Positions 1,311-21,430 of a stretch of DNA of 64,000 bases are shown here, one piece after another; position 1 is the stretch's first letter; each line of letters opens with the position of its first letter. Under the pieces are notes generated by a model. The model saw nothing but the letters and a program-made list of their open reading frames with translations, did no database searches and was not told the DNA's origin. The position numbers were made by a program, and so were the translations under genes. Source of the stretch: an uncultured Gemmatimonadota bacterium (lineage in GTDB: Bacteria; JAAXHH01); the NCBI GenBank assembly GCA_951812955.1, contig OX638340.1:1-64000 (forward strand), read 5' to 3'.

Positions 1311-1418
1311 CGGTCCACCCAGGTGGTCGGGTCCTCCCAGGTGGTCGGGTCCTCCCAGGTGGTCGGGTCCACCCAGGTGGTCGGGTCCACCCAGGTGGTC
1401 GGGTCCTCCCAGGTGATT
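1311..1418. repeat. 18-bp tandem repeat, about 6 units (GGGTCC[A/T]CCCAGGTGGTC), directly upstream of the first operon gene
   Basis: Seen directly: units at 1311-1328, 1329-1346, 1347-1364, 1365-1382, 1383-1400 and 1401-1418. Each unit carries an inverted repeat CCACC-N2-GGTGG and an AGGTGG (Shine-Dalgarno-like) core. The last unit supplies the AGGTGA RBS at 1411-1416 for the ATG at 1423. Confidence 0.9.
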
Positions 1419-1422
1419 GGGC

Positions 1423-1716
1423 ATGAGTGAATCAACCGGAAACATGGCGGAACAGCAGGCCCTGCTCGACCGGATCGCCGAGGCCGTGGTCGCGCGCGAA
1501 CTCACCGCGCCCGCGGTGCTCTTCCTTGAATCTATGAAACCCCTCTCGTTTCTGGGTGGTCAGTTCATGGCGTTTCTCAGTCCCTTCATTCACATGGTGG
1601 TCGATGCGTCAGAATACGACCGGATCGCCGAGGCCATCGAGCGCCGCGAGAACGTGGAATTTCTGATACAACGCATTGAGCATCATGCTTCCGGGAACGA
1701 TGACCCGGCCGACTGA
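1423..1716 (+). CDS. small hypothetical protein (97 aa), first gene of the candidate operon
   Basis: ATG at 1423 is preceded by AGGTGA. The ORF track starts at the TTG at 1417. The protein is acidic and helical-looking, with a duplicated 'DRIAEA(V/I)' motif (EYDRIAEAIERRENVEF). I could not assign a family. Confidence 0.5.
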   Translation: MSESTGNMAEQQALLDRIAEAVVARELTAPAVLFLESMKPLSFLGGQFMAFLSPFIHMVVDASEYDRIAEAIERRENVEFLIQRIEHHASGNDDPAD

Positions 1717-1721
1717 TTTCT

Positions 1722-1770
1722 GTCCAACCAGGTTCTGGCCAATCAGGTTCCGGCCAACCAGATTCGTAAG
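1722..1770. repeat. 15-bp tandem repeat x3 (CCAAYCAGGTTCYGG) immediately after the small ORF
   Basis: Seen directly: ccaaccaggttctgg / ccaatcaggttccgg / ccaaccagattcg. Intergenic between the stop at 1716 and the next start at 1836. Confidence 0.8.
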
Positions 1771-1835
1771 TACGCGCAGACGCTCGGCGTACCGCTTCAG
1801 GTAGATGCTTTCCATGTTCACGTAGAAGAATCCCC

Positions 1836-3638
1836 ATGTCCCTTCCATCGGATATTGAAGTCATTCTGGCCACGGACTGCGGCAGCACGACGACCAAGGC
1901 CATCCTGATCGAAAAACGGTCCGGCGCCTACCGTCTCCTTGTTCGCGGCGAGGCGCCGACGACCGTGGAGGCGCCCTTCGAGGATGTCACGCGGGGCGTG
2001 CTCAACGCGGTGCGCGAGGTGGAGGAGCAATCCGGCCGCGCGATCCTCGACGGGGACCGGATCGTCTCGCCGGGGGCCGGGGGCCGGGGGGTTGACCTCT
2101 ACGTCTCGACGAGCAGCGCCGGCGGCGGGCTTCAGATGATGGTGGCCGGGGTGGTCAAGAGCATGACCGCCGAGAGCGCCGAACGGGCGGCCCTCGGCGC
2201 GGGCGCCATCGTCATGGAAACACTGGCGTCCAACGACGGGCGCCTGCCCCACGAACGCATCGAACGCATCCGGCAACTTCGACCGGACATGATCCTGCTT
2301 TCGGGCGGCGTGGACGGCGGTACAAAGTCCCACGTGGTCGAGATGGCAGAACTAATCTCCGCCGCCGACCCGAGACCCCGTCTGGGAAGCGGATACGATC
2401 TGCCGGTCATATTTGCCGGAAATACAGAGGCCGGCGAGGACGTCAGGCGGATCCTGGACGACAGGACGGAACTCAGCCAGGTGGAGAACCTGCGGCCCGT
2501 GCTCGAGGCGGAGAACCTGGGCCCCGCGCGGGAACGGATCCATACACTGTTCATGGAACACGTGATGGCCCAGGCGCCCGGTTACCGGGCCCTGATGGCG
2601 TGGACCCACGTGCCCATCATGCCCACCCCCGGCGCCGTGGGCAGGATGGTGCGGGTCGTCGCCGACCGCGACGGTATCGACGTGGCGGGCGTGGACATCG
2701 GCGGCGCGACCACCGATGTGTTCTCGGTCTTCGGCGGCGCCTTCAACCGGACCGTGAGTGCCAATCTCGGCATGAGTTACAGCATTTCCAACGTGTTGAC
2801 GGAAGCGGGACTGGAGGCCATTGCGCGGTGGCTGCCGTTCGATATGACCGACGCCGATCTGAAGGACCGCCTCGGCAACAAGATGATCCGTCCCACCAGC
2901 ATCCCCCAGACCATGGAGGAACTGATCATCGAGCAGGCCGTGGCCCGCGAAGCCCTGAGGTTGGCCTTCGAGCAGCACAGGAACTTTGCCGTGACGTTGA
3001 AGGGCGTGCAACAGCTTCGAACGATATCGGACACCTTTGACCAGCAGACGGGCGGACAGACCCTGGTCGACCTGATGAACCTGGACCTGATCATCGGCAG
3101 CGGCGGCGTGCTTTCCCATGCGCCGAACCGGTCACAGGCCGCGTTGATGCTGGTGGACGCCTTTCAGCCGGTAGGCATCACGAACCTGGCGGTGGACAGC
3201 ATATTCATGATGCCCCACCTGGGGGTGCTTTCCACCGTGCATGAGACCGCGGCGCTGGAGGTTTTCGACCGAGACTGCCTCGTATATCTCGGACCCTGCG
3301 TCGCCCCGGCCGGAAGGGGTAACGCGGGTTCGCACAGCGTGACGGTGAAGGCCAGGGCCGATGGCGTGGAAACCGTGTGCGAGGCCGTCGTGGGAGAACT
3401 GGCCGCGATCCCGACAGGGGAAGCGGAGGAAGTCGTACTGGAGGTCATTCCATCCCGCGGTTTTGACGTCGGCGCCGGCAGAGGCACGCCGGTCACCCGT
3501 ACCGTCCGCAATGGCCCGCTGGGCGTGATTATCGATACGCGCGGCAGACCGCTTCAACTGCCGGCCGACGCGGCCGAAAGGGTGGAGGTCCTGAAGCGAA
3601 GTTACCGCGCACTCGAAGTCTATCCGGAGTCCAGTTGA
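1836..3638 (+). CDS. GlmL/MutL(EutA)-like actin-fold ATPase (600 aa); the 'methylaspartate mutase accessory' type, here without mutase subunits
   Basis: N-terminal 'VILATDCGSTTTKAILIE' phosphate-1 motif, a second 'GVDIGGATTDVFSV' motif and 'DLIIGSGGVLSHAP' match the actin/ASKHA fold as seen in GlmL/EutA-like proteins. It is much longer than the roughly 460-aa GlmL. The stop TGA at 3636-3638 overlaps the next ATG. Confidence 0.65.
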   Translation: MSLPSDIEVILATDCGSTTTKAILIEKRSGAYRLLVRGEAPTTVEAPFEDVTRGVLNAVREVEEQSGRAILDGDRIVSPGAGGRGVDLYVSTSSAGGGLQMMVAGVVKSMTAESAERAALGAGAIVMETLASNDGRLPHERIERIRQLRPDMILLSGGVDGGTKSHVVEMAELISAADPRPRLGSGYDLPVIFAGNTEAGEDVRRILDDRTELSQVENLRPVLEAENLGPARERIHTLFMEHVMAQAPGYRALMAWTHVPIMPTPGAVGRMVRVVADRDGIDVAGVDIGGATTDVFSVFGGAFNRTVSANLGMSYSISNVLTEAGLEAIARWLPFDMTDADLKDRLGNKMIRPTSIPQTMEELIIEQAVAREALRLAFEQHRNFAVTLKGVQQLRTISDTFDQQTGGQTLVDLMNLDLIIGSGGVLSHAPNRSQAALMLVDAFQPVGITNLAVDSIFMMPHLGVLSTVHETAALEVFDRDCLVYLGPCVAPAGRGNAGSHSVTVKARADGVETVCEAVVGELAAIPTGEAEEVVLEVIPSRGFDVGAGRGTPVTRTVRNGPLGVIIDTRGRPLQLPADAAERVEVLKRSYRALEVYPESS

Positions 3639-4762
3639 TGGCCCACGCCTATACATCGGGCCTGCGCGTATCGCCCCGGACCGTTGTCGCCCGGACACGG
3701 CGCCTTCCACTGAGTGGACAGGTGGTGGTGCAGGTGGATGACCGGGTACGGCCCGATACGGTGGTCGCAGAGACGTATCTGCCCGGACCGGTGCACAACG
3801 TCAACGTCGCCAATGCCCTGGCCATTGCGCCCGAGGACGTACCAGGCTGTATGCTGAAGCAACGGAACGATTCGGTGGAAAAAGGGGAGTTGATCGCCGA
3901 ATCAAAGGGGATTTTCGGGCTGTTCAAGTCCGCTGTCCGGTGCCCAGAGCGCGGAACAGTCGAAATGGTGTCGGATGTGACCGGCCAGGTGCTTATTCGG
4001 GAACCGTCGACCCCGGTACGGATCAACGCCTATCTCGATGGCAGGATAACCGAACTCCTTCCTGGAGAGGGTGTCATGGTGGAAACAGTCGGAGCCTTCA
4101 TCCAGGGCATCTTCGGCATAGGGGGCGAAGTGCACGCGCCGATAAATCAGATCGTCCAGTCGCCCGATGAGGAGGTCACCGAGGAGATGGTCGATGCGCG
4201 GTGCGCGGGACAGATCGTCTGCGGCGGATCCATGATCACCCTTGACGCGCTGCGTAAGTTGATAAGGGTCGGCGCGTCGGGTGTGGTGGTAGGGGGCATG
4301 CAGTACCACGACATCGGCGACCTCCTGGGTTACCAGATCGGCGTCGCGGTGACCGGCGGGGAAGACATCGGCCTGACCGTGGTGGTCACCGAAGGCTTCG
4401 GGCGGCTGCCCATGGCCGAGCGCACGTTCGACCTGATCGGGTCCATGGAGGGCCGGGAAGCCTCTATGAGCGGCGCCACGCAGATCCGGGCCGGTGTGAT
4501 TCGCCCCGAAATCATCATTAAGACCGACGGCTTCGAAGAACCGCAGGCACGATCGGATCCGGCGGCCCGCGGCCTGGTATCCGGGTCCCTGGTGCGCCTG
4601 ATCCGCAAGCCATGGTTTGGAGAAATCGCCACGGTGGCGTCGTTGCCGGAACAACCCGTCAGGCTTCCGACAGGCGCCCTGGCCCGGGTGCTGGAAGTTC
4701 GCAGGACGAACGGAGAGATCGTGACCGTGCCCCGAGCCAACGTGGAGATCGTGGAGTCCTGA
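3638..4762 (+). CDS. hypothetical protein (375 aa), translationally coupled partner of the actin-fold ATPase
   Basis: ATGA overlap with the upstream gene. Gly-rich central region ('GIFGIGGEVHAP', 'GGSMITLD...GASGVVVGGMQYHDIGD'). No TM segments obvious and no family recognised. Confidence 0.5.
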   Translation: MAHAYTSGLRVSPRTVVARTRRLPLSGQVVVQVDDRVRPDTVVAETYLPGPVHNVNVANALAIAPEDVPGCMLKQRNDSVEKGELIAESKGIFGLFKSAVRCPERGTVEMVSDVTGQVLIREPSTPVRINAYLDGRITELLPGEGVMVETVGAFIQGIFGIGGEVHAPINQIVQSPDEEVTEEMVDARCAGQIVCGGSMITLDALRKLIRVGASGVVVGGMQYHDIGDLLGYQIGVAVTGGEDIGLTVVVTEGFGRLPMAERTFDLIGSMEGREASMSGATQIRAGVIRPEIIIKTDGFEEPQARSDPAARGLVSGSLVRLIRKPWFGEIATVASLPEQPVRLPTGALARVLEVRRTNGEIVTVPRANVEIVES

Positions 4763-5700
4763 TGCGTCTATCCCCGTCACGCCGCAAGCCACACCCTGAT
4801 TCCTTCGCGATCGCGCTGCTGCGTGCTGTCCTCGCGTGTACGGTGTTCGTCGCCATGGCGCAGACGGATCTCCTTTTCGCACAGACTGACACCGAATCCG
4901 GCTGGTTCAACGCGGACCGGACCCAGGCCCTGGTACTCGGGATCGTCCTGACGGGCGCCATTCTGCTTTACGTTGTGCTGGCCGCCTCGGGCCGGCCCCT
5001 TTTCATTCGTAAAATCGCCGGCCTGGAAACGGTCGAGGAAGCCGTGGGCAGGGCGACGGAGATGGGCAAGCCCATCCTCTACGTCCCCGGCCTGAACGAC
5101 ATGGACGAGGTGCAGACCATCGCGTCCATGAACCTGCTGGGTCATCTCGCCACCATCATCGCGGGATACGACTCCAGGCTGCACGTACCCGTACGCAAGT
5201 CCCTCGTCATGAGCGTGGCGCGCGAGACCGTGCAGCAGTCCTACCTGTCCGCGGGGCGCCCCGACGCTTACCAGGAGGACGACATTCACTACGTGTCGGA
5301 CGCCCAATTCGCCTACGCGGCGGCCGTCGATGGCATCATCGTACGTGAACGGCCGGCCGCATGCTTCTACCTGGGCGGATTCTACGCCGAATCCCTTATC
5401 CTGGCGGAAACGGGCAACTCCATCGGGGCCATACAGATCGCGGGAACGGCCAGGCCTCCTCAACTGCCATTCTTCGTGGCGGCATGCGACTATACGCTGA
5501 TCGGCGAGGAACTTTTCGCCGCCAGCGCGTACCTGTCCAAGGAGCCGCGCATGCTCGGCAGCCTGAAGGGCCAGGACGCCGGCAAGGGCATCGCCATCGT
5601 GTTCATCCTGGCCGGCAGCGCGCTGGCCACACTGGAGTCCGTCACCGGAAACGAGACCGTCCGCGAAGTGTCGCAAATCGTCCTCTGGCTTTTCAGGTAG
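4762..5700 (+). CDS. membrane protein (312 aa): N-terminal signal/TM, a second TM, then a soluble domain and a C-terminal hydrophobic segment
   Basis: ATG at 4762 overlaps the TGA of the upstream gene (TGATG). Hydrophobic stretches 'FAIALLRAVLACTVFVAMA', 'LVLGIVLTGAILLYVVLAA' and a C-terminal 'GIAIVFILAGSALATL'. The longer ORF-track start at 4612 lies inside the upstream gene and is unlikely. Confidence 0.5.
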   Translation: MRLSPSRRKPHPDSFAIALLRAVLACTVFVAMAQTDLLFAQTDTESGWFNADRTQALVLGIVLTGAILLYVVLAASGRPLFIRKIAGLETVEEAVGRATEMGKPILYVPGLNDMDEVQTIASMNLLGHLATIIAGYDSRLHVPVRKSLVMSVARETVQQSYLSAGRPDAYQEDDIHYVSDAQFAYAAAVDGIIVRERPAACFYLGGFYAESLILAETGNSIGAIQIAGTARPPQLPFFVAACDYTLIGEELFAASAYLSKEPRMLGSLKGQDAGKGIAIVFILAGSALATLESVTGNETVREVSQIVLWLFR

Positions 5701-5705
5701 ATCCC

Positions 5706-6386
5706 ATGCGTCGTAAAATACCGCTCATCATCACATTCATCATCGGCGTTGTCCTGGTCACAGGGTATTTCGTGACAAGGGGACCGTTCAACACGCTGTA
5801 TGAGAGTTTCTCCGATTATTTCGCCATCATTACGGTCTTCGCCTTCATCCTCGGCGGCGGCAGTCTGCTAAAGATTCATTTGAAACGCGTTTCCAACCGA
5901 TCCACGGACTGGCCCTACAGTGTGGTAACCCTGGCGGGGTTCCTCGTCACCCTGGTGATCGGACTGTTCAAGGTGGGCAATCCGGATGGGATGGGCGGGG
6001 AGATCCTGGCTGCCGGTTCCTGGCTGCGCTTCCTGTTCGACGGGGTCTACAATCCGCTGTCGGCGACCATGTTCTCCCTGCTGGCCTTCTTTGTCGCCTC
6101 GGCGTCCTACCGGGCCTTCAGAGCGCGTACGAAGGAGGCCACCATCCTCCTTTCCGCCGCCATGGTCATCCTGCTGGGCAGAACCCCCGTGGGCGCCTGG
6201 CTGACGGCCTGGATGCCGGAAATCCTGGGATTTCTCGAACTGCCGAACCTGGCCAACTGGATCATGGCCTGGCCGAACACGGCCGGCCAGCGTGCGATAA
6301 TGATCGGCATCGCCCTGGGGGTCATCGCGACCTCACTGCGCATCATCCTGGGGATCGAGCGCAACTACCTGGGCAGGAGGGAGTGA
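5706..6386 (+). CDS. polytopic integral membrane protein (226 aa)
   Basis: ATG at 5706 lies 5 nt after the upstream stop. There are 5-6 hydrophobic helices ('IPLIITFIIGVVLVTGYFV', 'FAIITVFAFILGGGSLL', 'VVTLAGFLVTLVIGLF', ...). The track's longer N-terminus (from 5361) is an Arg/Gly-rich readthrough inside the previous gene. Confidence 0.5.
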   Translation: MRRKIPLIITFIIGVVLVTGYFVTRGPFNTLYESFSDYFAIITVFAFILGGGSLLKIHLKRVSNRSTDWPYSVVTLAGFLVTLVIGLFKVGNPDGMGGEILAAGSWLRFLFDGVYNPLSATMFSLLAFFVASASYRAFRARTKEATILLSAAMVILLGRTPVGAWLTAWMPEILGFLELPNLANWIMAWPNTAGQRAIMIGIALGVIATSLRIILGIERNYLGRRE

Positions 6387-6388
6387 GC

Positions 6389-7288
6389 ATGCGGATTCCC
6401 GATTCCATCCTGCATATCGACCGGCGGATCATCTTCCTGCTCATCGGGGCGGCCGTCTGCATACCCCTGATCCTGCAGCCCCGCTTCCAGGACAGTCCCA
6501 CGCCTATCGTCCAGTCGATTTTCGACACGGTGGAGCGGCTGCCGTCCGGGTCGCGCGTATTCCTTTCCTTCGATTACGGTCCGGACACGGCGCCCGAACT
6601 GGATCCCATGGCCAAGGCCCTCGTGCGGCACACGATGACCCGGGGCCACGAGGTGTCCTTCTTCACCCTGTTCCCCGAAGGGCTGGGACAGATCAAGAAG
6701 ATCACGGACAACCTGCTGCCTGTGGAGTTCCCGGAGAAAGCCTATGGCAGGGATTTCGTGAACCTGGGTTACAAGGCCGGCCTGGGTGGCGCGATTAATA
6801 CGATGGTCGTCAACTTCCGAACGCTGATCAATGCCGACGCGGAGGGCACGCCGCTCGACGATCTGCCCATGACCGCGGATGTCGACGAGATGGTGGACTA
6901 TGCCATTATCCTCAGCCTGACCGCGGGCGACCCGGGACTGAAGGAGTGGATTCAGTTCGCGGGCGATATCGCGGGGATTCCCGTCATGGGCGGGGGCACC
7001 GCCGTGGTGGCGCCGGAACTGTATCCCTACTATCCTCAGCAACTGGTCGGCCTGATGGGCGGCCTCAAGGGCGCTTCCGAGTACGAGTCCGCCCTTGTGG
7101 ACCGGTATCCGGCCTACCGTAACGCCACCATGGACGCCACCATGCGCATGGGGCCCCAGGTCGTCACCCACGTGCTGATCGTCCTGCTGATCCTGCTGGG
7201 CAATCTGGCTTACTTCTTCGGCCGATCTGGCCGACCGGGCCGGAATGACCGGACGGACCGGGCGGACCAGGCGGACCGCAGGCGTTAA
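6389..7288 (+). CDS. bitopic membrane-anchored protein (about 300 aa) with N- and C-terminal TM helices; the C-terminal tail is encoded by a 9-bp repeat
   Basis: GGAGG at 6377-6381 precedes the ATG at 6389; GTG at 6383 is an alternative that overlaps the upstream TGA. TM 'IIFLLIGAAVCIPLIL' near the N-terminus and 'VVTHVLIVLLILLGNLAYFF' near the C-terminus. Terminal 'GRSGRPGRNDRTDRADQADRRR' is low complexity. Confidence 0.5.
   Translation: MRIPDSILHIDRRIIFLLIGAAVCIPLILQPRFQDSPTPIVQSIFDTVERLPSGSRVFLSFDYGPDTAPELDPMAKALVRHTMTRGHEVSFFTLFPEGLGQIKKITDNLLPVEFPEKAYGRDFVNLGYKAGLGGAINTMVVNFRTLINADAEGTPLDDLPMTADVDEMVDYAIILSLTAGDPGLKEWIQFAGDIAGIPVMGGGTAVVAPELYPYYPQQLVGLMGGLKGASEYESALVDRYPAYRNATMDATMRMGPQVVTHVLIVLLILLGNLAYFFGRSGRPGRNDRTDRADQADRRR
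7243..7280. repeat. 9-bp tandem repeat (RGGCGGACC) x3-4 inside the 3' end of the 6389-7288 CDS
   Basis: Seen directly: ggacggacc / gggcggacc / aggcggacc (7251-7277). It belongs to the same family as the arrays at 18810-18935 and 21110-21175. Confidence 0.7.
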
Positions 7289-7299
7289 AGGAACGGCGT

Positions 7300-7974
7300 A
7301 TGGATGTTACACTGCAGCTTTGGATCGACGCGGCCCTGACGCTGATGATCCTCAGCTTCCTGTACCGTGACAATCCTTTCTACAAATTCGCCGAACATCT
7401 CTTTGTCGGCGTGTCCGCCGCGTACCTCATGGCAATCGGATTCTGGGACCACCTGGTCCCGAACCTGCTGGGCAAACTGTTCCCCTCGCTCATGTCGGGG
7501 GTCGTGCCCGGCGCCGTCGGCCGGTCGCCGGATTACTACTACATCATCCCCGCCGTCTTCGGCCTGCTGCTTCTTACCCGCCTGGTCGACCGCTGGGCCT
7601 GGCTCAGCCGGTGGGCGCTGGCGTTCATCGTCGGCGGCTCGGCGGGATTCAACCTGCCCCGCTTCCTGGATTCGGACTTCATCATTCAGGTCCAAAGCAC
7701 CATGGTTCCGCTCGTGGTGCTCGACCCGGCTGGCAATCTGCTCTGGGGCGCGAGTTTTTCCCACATTGTACTCGTTCTGGGCGTGATCTGCGGACTGGTG
7801 TACTTCTTCTTCTCCGTAGAACACAAGGGGATACTGGGACACGTGTCTCGTGCTGGGATCTGGGTGTTGATGGTGACCTTCGGCGCCGCCTTCGGATACA
7901 CGGTCATGGCGCGCATCTCCCTCCTCACCGGCAGGATGGAAGCCCTGGGCGCCTGGCTCGCCACCATGTTCTGA
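7300..7974 (+). CDS. polytopic integral membrane protein (224 aa), last gene of the candidate operon
   Basis: AGGAA RBS before the ATG at 7300. At least 5 hydrophobic helices ('AALTLMILSFLY', 'LFVGVSAAYLMAIGFW', 'YYYIIPAVFGLLLL', 'IVLVLGVICGLVYFFF', 'IWVLMVTFGAAFGYTV'). Confidence 0.5.
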   Translation: MDVTLQLWIDAALTLMILSFLYRDNPFYKFAEHLFVGVSAAYLMAIGFWDHLVPNLLGKLFPSLMSGVVPGAVGRSPDYYYIIPAVFGLLLLTRLVDRWAWLSRWALAFIVGGSAGFNLPRFLDSDFIIQVQSTMVPLVVLDPAGNLLWGASFSHIVLVLGVICGLVYFFFSVEHKGILGHVSRAGIWVLMVTFGAAFGYTVMARISLLTGRMEALGAWLATMF

Positions 7975-7992
7975 TTGGAGACCGTCGCGCGG

Positions 7993-8040
7993 CCCGGTCC
8001 GATGTCCGGGCGACCCGGTCCGATGTCCGGGCGACCCGGT
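7993..8040. repeat. 21-bp direct tandem repeat x2.3 (CCCGGTCCGATGTCCGGGCGA) just downstream of the operon
   Basis: Seen directly at 7993-8013 and 8014-8034 plus a partial third copy. It contains the CGGACCGGG core shared with the 9-bp repeat family (reverse orientation). Confidence 0.8.
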
Positions 8041-18809: not shown

Positions 18810-18935
18810 CAGGATCAATCGGACCAATCGGGCCAATCGGACCAGTCCGGCCAGGCGGACCGAGTGGGCAAATCTGGCCAAGCTGGCCAAGCTGACTAGG
18901 CGGACCAGGCGGACCGAGCTGACCAGGCGGACCAG
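18810..18935. repeat. array of 9-bp/hexamer-type tandem repeats (…GGACCAATCGG… and …AGGCGGACC…) upstream of the methyltransferase gene
   Basis: Seen directly: caatcggaccaatcgggccaatcggaccagtccggccaggcggacc ... ctggccaagctggccaagctgactaggcggaccaggcggaccgagctgaccaggcggaccag. It gives Arg/Thr/Asn repeats in the + frame and a PGP/IGP repeat in the - frame. Confidence 0.7.
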
Positions 18936-20380: not shown

Positions 20381-21430
20381 TTGAACTACGACGCATTGCT
20401 CCTGGTATCATTCGGGGGCCCGGAAGGCGCCGCCGACGTCCTCCCCTTTCTCGAGCGCGTGCTCAAAGGCCGGCGCGTTCCCAGGGAACGAATGATGGAG
20501 GTCGCGGAACACTACCACCATTTCGGTGGGGTCAGCCCGATAAACAGCCAGAACCGGGCACTGATCTCCGCCCTTGAAAGCGCGTTGGCGAACCGCGACC
20601 TTCCCCTCCCGATCTACTGGGGAAACCGGAACTGGCATCCCTTGCTGGCGGATACGGTCCGGCGGATGGCCGCGGACGGGATCCAACGGGCGCTGGCCCT
20701 CGTTACGTCCGCCTACAGCTCCTATTCGAACTGCAGGCAGTACCTCGAGAACATCGAGGATGCCCGGCGCGAGGTGGGCGGCGGCGCCCCGAAAATCGAC
20801 AAGATCAGGCCCTTTTTCCATCATCCGGGTTATATCGAAACGATGGAGGCACGCGTTCGTTCCGCCCTGGACCGCTTGCCGGAAGCGCGCCGCGCCTCGG
20901 CGCACCTGGTGTATACCGCCCACAGCATACCCCTGGCCATGGCTCGGGGATGCGCGTACGAAGCGCAACTCCGGGAAGCCTCCCGGCTCATCAGCGCGCG
21001 CGCGGGCGCTTCCTCCTGGACGCTGGCATTTCAAAGCCGCAGCGGTCCGCCCGCTCAGCCCTGGCTGGAACCCGATGTCTGTGATTACATCCGGTCGTTC
21101 CACGAGACTGGCGCGGGCCGGGCGGACCGAGCGGACCGAGCGGGCCGGGCGGACCGGGCGGACCGGGATATCGTGTTGATCCCCGTAGGATTCATCTCGG
21201 ACCACATGGAAGTGGCCTACGACCTGGACATTGAAGCGCGGGCGTGTTGCGATGAGCTCGGGGTACGCATGGTCCGGGCGGAAACGGCGGGGACTCATCC
21301 CCGCTTCGTGGAAATGATCGTGGAACTCGTCGAAGAACGCCTGTCCCTGACGACGGCCAGGGCGGCCGTGGGTGTCCTGGAACCGTGGCCCGATCGATGC
21401 CCGCCGGACTGCTGCCCTTCCGGCAGGTAG
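20381..21430 (+). CDS. hemH: ferrochelatase (likely coproporphyrin ferrochelatase CpfC) carrying an in-frame repeat insertion
   Basis: 'LLVSFGGPEG', 'SPINSQNRALISALESAL', 'YWGNRNWHP', 'IPVGFISDHMEVAYDLDIEA' are ferrochelatase signatures. 'GAGRADRADRAGRADRADR' immediately before the 'IVLIPVGF' strand is encoded by the 9-bp repeat. Confidence 0.85.
   Translation: MNYDALLLVSFGGPEGAADVLPFLERVLKGRRVPRERMMEVAEHYHHFGGVSPINSQNRALISALESALANRDLPLPIYWGNRNWHPLLADTVRRMAADGIQRALALVTSAYSSYSNCRQYLENIEDARREVGGGAPKIDKIRPFFHHPGYIETMEARVRSALDRLPEARRASAHLVYTAHSIPLAMARGCAYEAQLREASRLISARAGASSWTLAFQSRSGPPAQPWLEPDVCDYIRSFHETGAGRADRADRAGRADRADRDIVLIPVGFISDHMEVAYDLDIEARACCDELGVRMVRAETAGTHPRFVEMIVELVEERLSLTTARAAVGVLEPWPDRCPPDCCPSGR
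21110..21175. repeat. 9-bp tandem repeat (CGGACCGRG/CGGGCCGGG) x about 6 inside hemH
   Basis: Seen directly: ggccgggcggaccgagcggaccgagcgggccgggcggaccgggcggaccggg. Confidence 0.8.

Follow-up and report, generated by a model that had tools for sequence, protein, structure and literature searches.

Actin-fold ATPases of the GlmL/MutL family are described as accessory or reactivating proteins of B12-dependent mutases, and they share the ASKHA superfamily with the α subunits of hydantoinases, for which Phosphate-1, Phosphate-2 and Adenosine signatures have been described (PMC5214803). Here, we describe a cluster of seven genes in a 64,000-nucleotide (nt) stretch of DNA from an uncultured Gemmatimonadota bacterium (contig OX638340.1, positions 1 to 64,000, hereafter the window) in which a protein of this family is encoded together with a soluble partner and four membrane proteins. 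The genes, all on the + strand, are labelled A to G in gene order; L numbers denote related loci and P numbers representative proteins.

We propose that the seven genes encode one conserved membrane-associated ATPase machine, probably serving transport or translocation, a reading to which we give slightly less than an even chance. Gene structure, conservation, synteny, multiplicity of modules, domain content and indicators of topology were observed directly. An original prediction made from the window's sequence had described the locus as an undescribed membrane-associated ATPase system, and the comparisons reported here uphold that description: the synteny of B-C with D-E-F-G is kept among relatives, and no described system matches. 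Because the cluster recurs in hundreds of species from many phyla without a described match, it points to a widespread cellular machine.

Conservation and modularity of the cluster

The window holds seven co-directional open reading frames (ORFs), as predicted, with only small corrections to their boundaries. A (1423-1716) encodes a small protein of 97 amino acids (aa), an accessory member of the cluster recognised from its ORF. B (1836-3638) encodes a 600-aa ATPase of the GlmL/MutL family and D (4762-5700) a 312-aa DUF6754 membrane protein, both assigned from the ORF and a Pfam match. Between them, C (3638-4762) encodes a soluble partner of 374 aa, counted from an ATG supported by the starts of its homologues. 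ORFs and hydropathy define the remaining three: E (5706-6386), an integral membrane protein of 226 aa with about six transmembrane (TM) helices; F (6389-7288, with an alternative GTG start at 6383), a 299-aa protein with a TM helix at each end; and G (7300-7974), an integral membrane protein of 224 aa, again with about six TM helices.

A spacer of 119 nt separates A from B, and from B through G the genes are packed with 1-nt overlaps or gaps of at most 11 nt. C had been counted as 375 aa, a length that includes a TTG at 3635; the gene stands, and its start is placed at the ATG at 3638 because its homologues all begin MAHAYTPGL. The junction of B and C had been given as ATGA, whereas letters 3636-3640 read TGATG, a 1-nt stop/start overlap. 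TGATG was also read directly at the C/D junction (4760-4764), as reported before. The GTGA overlap of E and F is likewise present and becomes a 2-nt gap if F begins at 6389. Of the overlapping or 5-nt junctions ascribed to the membrane genes, the 5-nt gap between D and E is correct, whereas F and G lie 11 nt apart.

The C family comprises more than 8000 homologues, with about 50% identity across phyla and a nearly constant length (371-386 aa among the 120 best matches), and C is encoded in at least 589 species when each GTDB species is represented by a single genome. Its closest named homologues come from Gemmatimonadota, the window's own lineage (83-87% identity). The other labels are Zixibacteria, Eisenbacteria, Fermentibacteria, Ignavibacteria, WOR-3, Latescibacterota, Marinimicrobia, Fidelibacterota, Planctomycetota, Lentisphaeria, Synergistia, Bacillota, Riflebacteria and Armatimonadota, together with one metagenome-assembled genome (MAG) labelled Bathyarchaeota.

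To count synteny, 82 loci were searched by tblastn with the seven proteins of the window; 40 of these loci have at least 8 kb on both sides (the full-flank loci). B directly precedes C in 53 of the 72 loci with enough flank, and D directly follows C in 22 of 60. B-C-D-E-F-G is contiguous in 14 of the 40 full-flank loci, a further five carry B-C with D-E-F-G at some other place within 10 kb, mostly ahead of A-B-C, and one has C and D with no adjoining B. The block can stand either after C or ahead of A-B-C. The original prediction had set conservation of gene order in relatives as a check, and the order is indeed conserved, both for B-C and for D-E-F-G, which adjoins or lies near B-C in 19 of 40. 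D, E, F and G keep their order and adjacency in every locus where all four were found, and E directly follows D wherever both were found. Orthologues of A occur on the same strand in 33 of the 82 loci, mostly just upstream of B and at times between C and D. An eighth member, the gene 'H', encodes a protein of about 160 aa with two TM helices and a soluble tail; it precedes A in 20 loci and is absent from the window. Such an arrangement, met again with the same genes in dozens of loci across many phyla, lies far beyond chance, and the seven genes are a conserved module.

The membrane genes also multiply as a block. Two or three tandem D-E-F-G modules stand beside a single B-C pair in L087 (6458-17809), L032, L063, L012 and L034, and a second, stand-alone module was found on another contig of the same assembly (L088, compared with L013). 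Paralogues of D-E-F-G within one genome are 31-56% identical, whereas most paralogous modules are 50-74% identical to their closest match in another genome, one of these labelled as another phylum. Because most of the modules are closer to their counterparts in other genomes than to their own paralogues, the module types appear to be old, with each four-gene set evolving as a unit.

Several loci depart from the usual arrangement. The contig L039, labelled Candidatus Bathyarchaeota, carries B-C as two divergent pairs, together with D-E-F(-G) twice; should this contig prove to be archaeal, the system would extend to both prokaryotic domains. In nine WOR-3 loci (L001-L004, L016, L023, L029, L037 and L071), a stand-alone paralogue of C directly follows a TMEM260-like (GT-C type) membrane protein of about 940 aa with TPR repeats, and an aminotransferase then follows the paralogue in L001-L004; another WOR-3 contig, L086, has the usual A-B-C order. 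One genome (L087, 4259-4878) has a HepT/MNT-type toxin-antitoxin pair between B and C. An extra secreted protein of about 265 aa with a C-terminal TM helix occupies the same position in L010, L015, L017, L034, L040 and L050, four of them Ignavibacteria-type and two labelled Zixibacteria. TolQ/ExbB-like and TolB-like genes come after C in the Ignavibacteria-type loci.

The ATPase, its soluble partner and the small protein

B scores 425.5 bits with Pfam MutL (PF13941), where the cut-off is 27, with residues 10-481 spanning model positions 1-450 of 450, and weak, sub-cut-off matches to Hydant_A_N and Hydantoinase_A lie over its phosphate motifs 1 and 2. In an alignment of 27 sequences from at least seven phylum-level labels, the motif ATDCGSTTTKA (Phosphate 1) is invariant, and GVDIGGATTD (Phosphate 2) and GSGGVLSHAP (Adenosine) are invariant at most positions, with the invariant cores D14-C-G-S-T-T-T-K, D287-I-G-G-A-T-T-D and G421-S-G-G-x-L-S. 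As these correspond to the ASKHA signatures of PMC5214803, B has the nucleotide-binding motifs of that superfamily. The assignment of B to the GlmL/MutL family in the original prediction is borne out by these matches and motifs. The Pfam MutL match and the weak hydantoinase matches also support, indirectly, a putative actin (ASKHA) fold.

The B family has more than 8000 homologues and is conserved to an unusual degree: mean column identity in the alignment is 73%, about 250 columns are invariant, and identity between phyla is about 65%. This is the level usual for core cell machinery. B had been called oversized, a description that does not hold: homologues measure 555-628 aa among the 120 best matches, nearly all of them 591-628, and because about 600 aa is normal for the subfamily, B is no length outlier. 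Hydropathy gives it no TM helices.

Homologues of B carry the database names 'glutamate mutase L' and 'methylaspartate mutase', and these names, with the strong Pfam MutL match, would suit a genuine GlmL-type accessory or reactivating protein of a B12-dependent mutase encoded elsewhere, its neighbours being unrelated. We give this explanation almost no credence. B falls below the curated cut-offs of all three specific models, GlmL (NCBIfam NF040745, 235 bits against 475), Or-4 (219 against 600) and TIGR01319 (173.4 against 204.05), and past its core (10-481) it carries a C-terminal extension of about 120 aa that lies outside the GlmL model. From its first position to about 24.5 kb, the window was found to have no mutase, eut or pdu genes, in agreement with what had been noted of the neighbourhood. 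The recurrent gene clusters that were examined across the 82 loci likewise yielded no mutase (glmS/glmE, ora or kam), and the neighbours that B keeps are C and D-G. The mutase names are thus unsupported by context, and such misnaming can give uncultured phyla a spurious step of glutamate fermentation when their metabolism is reconstructed.

C has no TM helices by hydropathy, is Gly-rich as described (11% Gly) and has no match in Pfam, NCBIfam or the PDB sequences, profile search included. Database names in the cluster also include 'hypothetical' and 'KOW domain-containing'. The predicted structure of C comprises a barrel-sandwich hybrid at the N-terminus, a swivelling β/β/α domain in the middle and a KOW/SH3-like barrel at the C-terminus, and in this model the swivel domain has the β/β/α fold of the mobile domain of phosphoenolpyruvate (PEP)-utilising enzymes. 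The N-terminal peptide MAHAYTPGL, with Y5, T6, G8 and L9 invariant, has no ordered structure in the model and could well serve as a docking peptide.

This domain composition led us to consider C as a lipoyl, biotinyl or phosphohistidine carrier. Residue 3 apart, C has no invariant or nearly invariant His; its swivel domain has GATQIRAGVIRPE, which we take to stand against the TSH motif of PEP-utilising enzymes. In the hybrid domain, the candidate hairpin-tip lysines vary, and no Lys is invariant. As these key Lys and His residues are not conserved, all three carrier roles are ruled out.

The conservation of B and the peptide of C bear on another explanation, in which B would be a polymerising actin-like cytoskeletal protein and C and the membrane proteins would anchor its filaments to the membrane so as to govern cell shape, division or the organisation of the envelope. 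B is a member of the ASKHA superfamily, its invariant columns are unusually many, and the N-terminal peptide of C recalls those of PilN and FtsN, which bind PilM and FtsA; the envelope genes tolQ and tolB after C in the Ignavibacteria loci would also fit. We nevertheless consider this improbable, as Pfam groups MutL/GlmL with the hydantoinases and not with MreB, ParM or FtsA, nothing points to polymerisation of B, and multiple paralogous membrane modules would be unexpected for a cytoskeletal anchor.

A shares neither a Pfam nor an NCBIfam match and has no TM helices by hydropathy. Its core is a conserved hydrophobic helix-break-helix (..PAVLFLESMKPLSFLGGQFMAFLSPF..). A had been described as repeat-containing, and it does hold a perfect 19-nt direct repeat (1467-1485 and 1617-1635, 150 nt apart) that encodes DRIAEA twice. 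The homologue of A in L036, the sole one looked at, is without this duplication.

The membrane block and its proposed working

D matches DUF6754 (PF20539) at 394.9 bits against a cut-off of 27, with residues 45-295 covering model positions 2-252 of 257. Hydropathy gives it a signal or N-terminal helix followed by two TM helices that flank a highly conserved domain of about 200 aa, and 98 of its columns are invariant. This DUF6754 domain, lying between the TM helices, is indicated by sequence to be cytoplasmic. Homologues of D carry an Fn3 domain at the N-terminus, right after the signal peptide, and the sole match of D in a PDB profile search is the Fn3 domain of longer homologues. D on the contig labelled Bathyarchaeota (L039) has neither signal peptide nor Fn3.

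E has about six TM helices, with both termini inside by the positive-inside rule, and in the Planctomycetota locus L089 (4594-5856) it contains an FHA-like insertion of about 210 aa in the TM3-TM4 loop. By hydropathy, F has two TM helices, one at each end, around a domain of about 225 aa that is indicated to be extracytoplasmic; it has 3315 relatives among 50%-identity representatives, including a variant with CARDB inserted in the central domain (P0443) and variants with Zn-ribbons at the cytoplasmic N-terminus (P0510 and P0456). G, with about six TM helices, has the conserved motifs FLYKDNPFYKFAEH and FFFSKEHKG. The proposed topology fits, because Fn3 in D, CARDB and Zn-ribbons in F, the FHA-like insert in E and the positive-inside pattern all agree. 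Natural F-G fusion proteins (P0373, P0374 and P0377) argue for physical contact of F with G.

When 30-36 diverse members each of E, F and G were searched, no Pfam match rose above cut-off and only scattered chance matches appeared, among them a sub-threshold AveC_like match in 2 of 30 members of G. None of the three has an NCBIfam match or a PDB relative by profile. No internal paralogy was found by hhalign among all components, so E and G are not detectably related.

From these features, we infer a physical complex, its coupling to ATP and a role in transport. B and C would form a cytoplasmic nucleotide-switch unit, with C as a three-domain adaptor, and the pair would dock on a four-protein module of the cytoplasmic membrane by way of the conserved DUF6754 domain of D. 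D would be embedded with E, F and G, of which E and G would be six-helix integral proteins; F would hold its extracytoplasmic domain to the membrane through its two terminal helices, and both this domain and the Fn3 domain of D, where present, would face outward. ATP turnover would drive a conformational cycle in the D-E-F-G module, the most likely outcome being that a substrate is moved across the cytoplasmic membrane or that something is delivered to its outer face. One B-C pair would serve several ancient paralogous D-E-F-G modules. We favour transport or translocation because several ancient membrane modules around one common B-C pair recall exchangeable membrane units that share an energising module.

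Several observations count against such a machine. B-C occurs without D-E-F-G within 10 kb in 11 of the 40 full-flank loci, and C by itself in nine; in the WOR-3 loci, a C paralogue instead neighbours a TMEM260-like glycosyltransferase. No relative of B was found in the PDB by single-sequence or profile search, the predicted structure of D is poor and unreliable (predicted local distance difference test score, pLDDT, of 56), and E and G have no conserved intramembrane acidic residues suggestive of ion coupling. To our knowledge, there is no ASKHA-driven transporter to serve as precedent. Furthermore, the gene immediately before (H-)A-B-C is gcvPB in 13 of the surveyed loci, which comprise Eisenbacteria, Fermentibacteria, one WOR-3 and unclassified MAGs, and also in L086 and L090; this linkage could point to a metabolic role for B-C.

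This last linkage leads to a different explanation, in which B and C are a soluble metabolic enzyme/chaperone pair, such as a hydantoinase-like ATP-dependent kinase or hydrolase or a chaperone of the reactivase kind linked with glycine cleavage or lipoylation, and D-E-F-G is a separate, co-regulated membrane complex, for example a substrate permease. The loci in which B-C has no nearby D-E-F-G fit this explanation, and so does the position of the cluster downstream of gcvT-gcvH-gcvPA-gcvPB in about ten loci (L013, L020, L036, L038, L042, L043, L053, L060, L065 and L082), the LplA-like lipoate ligase gene directly after G in eight, and the order gcvPB-A-B-C without D-G in L086 (WOR-3) and L090. 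The MutL family also falls within the hydantoinase branch, and those members of the branch that have been solved act as ATP-dependent kinases on small substrates (PMC5214803). In C, the barrel-sandwich hybrid is of the lipoyl/biotinyl kind, and the swivel domain resembles that of PEP enzymes. However, C, without the invariant swivel His and hairpin Lys, is no phospho-, lipoyl- or biotinyl-carrier, and gcv linkage is absent from the window and from the Zixibacteria, Ignavibacteria and Gemmatimonadota loci. Rfam searches found no riboswitch or other RNA element in the window up to 12 kb, nor any, including a glycine riboswitch, in seven related loci, gcv-linked ones among them. In the window, a stop/start overlap couples C to D, and several D-E-F-G modules around one B-C pair fit a shared module better. 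We regard a soluble pair as possible and rather unlikely; the gcv neighbourhood may reflect a functional link to glycine cleavage or lipoylation, or an inherited gene order.

Beyond the ATPase machine that we propose lies a bolder claim, that the cluster represents a new class of membrane machine in which a GlmL-type ASKHA ATPase and a swivel-domain adaptor power interchangeable four-subunit membrane modules. We offer it tentatively and consider it doubtful. If true, it would represent a principle of primary-active transport or translocation unrelated to ABC, P-type, V/F-type and AAA+ systems, and an ancient one, present in more than ten bacterial phyla and possibly in archaea too.

The original prediction had also drawn attention to tandem repeat arrays flanking the cluster, and these are present. 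Intergenic arrays lie at 1308-1415, 1718-1765 and 7989-8040, the first ending 8 nt ahead of the start codon of A; their units are of 9, 15, 18 and 21 bp with a common CGG(A/T)CC core, and similar arrays on this core lie elsewhere in the window (18812-18935 and 21113-21167). The repeat type reaches into a gene, since a 9-bp repeat (GACCGGGCG, 3.6 copies, 7247-7278) lies inside the coding sequence of F, where it encodes the basic low-complexity C-terminal tail (…PGRNDRTDRADQADRRR). Because the arrays are absent from the homologous intergenic positions of L006 and L007, whose proteins are 77-94% identical and which carry other short arrays of 9 and 19 bp, we rejected them as part of the system. 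They look like a trait of the lineage, seemingly genome-wide. Neighbouring genes in the window encode a PhyH dioxygenase, a sugar-1-phosphate nucleotidyltransferase, LptF/LptG, a response regulator, pyrimidine genes and NAD synthase, together with a product that, from reading its ORF sequence, we take to be MetK.

Relation to described systems

The component families are partly catalogued (MutL and DUF6754), and the system as a whole is of no known kind. No component matches the known transporter and secretion families in Pfam and NCBIfam (ABC, ECF, Rnf/Nqr, Lpt, Mla, Tol and others), and PADLOC anti-phage defence models gave no match to any of the seven proteins. The partner and membrane genes thus stand outside the well-characterised transporter families, C, E, F and G being without a family and D having DUF6754 only, as the original prediction had supposed. 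The literature searched contained no mention of DUF6754, PF13941 or TIGR01319 and no description of the cluster.

B and its six partners are highly conserved proteins without an assigned function. The cluster offers a lead on the mechanism of the GlmL/EutA family and a defined target of seven, sometimes eight, genes in FCB-group, PVC and related bacteria. If B-C indeed energise the membrane modules, ASKHA ATPases would be added to the few kinds of engine that power processes at membranes.

Among described proteins, the nearest are GlmL/MutL, an accessory protein of glutamate mutase, and the GlmL relative Or-4 of ornithine degradation (PF13941, TIGR01319). B resembles these in Pfam family, alignment over the full model and nucleotide-binding motifs; it differs in its sub-cut-off NCBIfam scores, its C-terminal domain of about 120 aa and the lack of mutase neighbours, its conserved partners being instead C and four membrane proteins. 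The α subunits of hydantoinase, oxoprolinase and acetone/acetophenone carboxylase, to which the weak Pfam matches at both phosphate motifs of B point, likewise combine an ASKHA domain with an extra C-terminal domain (PMC5214803), whereas the cluster has no HyuB-like β subunit and its partners are membrane proteins. An ASKHA ATPase and a swivel domain also occur together in the diol/glycerol dehydratase reactivase DdrA/DdrB (PduG/PduH), a likeness at the level of fold only; here, the two are on separate polypeptides, there is no B12 enzyme, and the presumed client is a membrane complex.

Other likenesses concern single domains or general architecture. The match to NqrA and RnfC, peripheral subunits of the ion-translocating complexes Nqr and Rnf, is limited to the hybrid domain of C, about 100 residues, with no flavin or Fe-S domains, and D-G give no Rnf or Nqr family match. 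PilM-PilN-PilO and FtsA-FtsN pair an ASKHA protein with membrane proteins, and the N-terminal peptide of C could bind B as the N-terminus of PilN binds PilM; there is no sequence relationship, however, and the membrane partners in the cluster are polytopic and form a fixed four-gene block. In overall layout, the cluster recalls the group II ECF transporters and those ABC importers that have tethered binding domains, which set one cytoplasmic ATPase unit beside several paralogous membrane modules, with two subunits of about six TM helices and a membrane-tethered extracytoplasmic domain. This likeness is by analogy only, as no component belongs to an ABC or ECF family and the ATPase is of another fold class.

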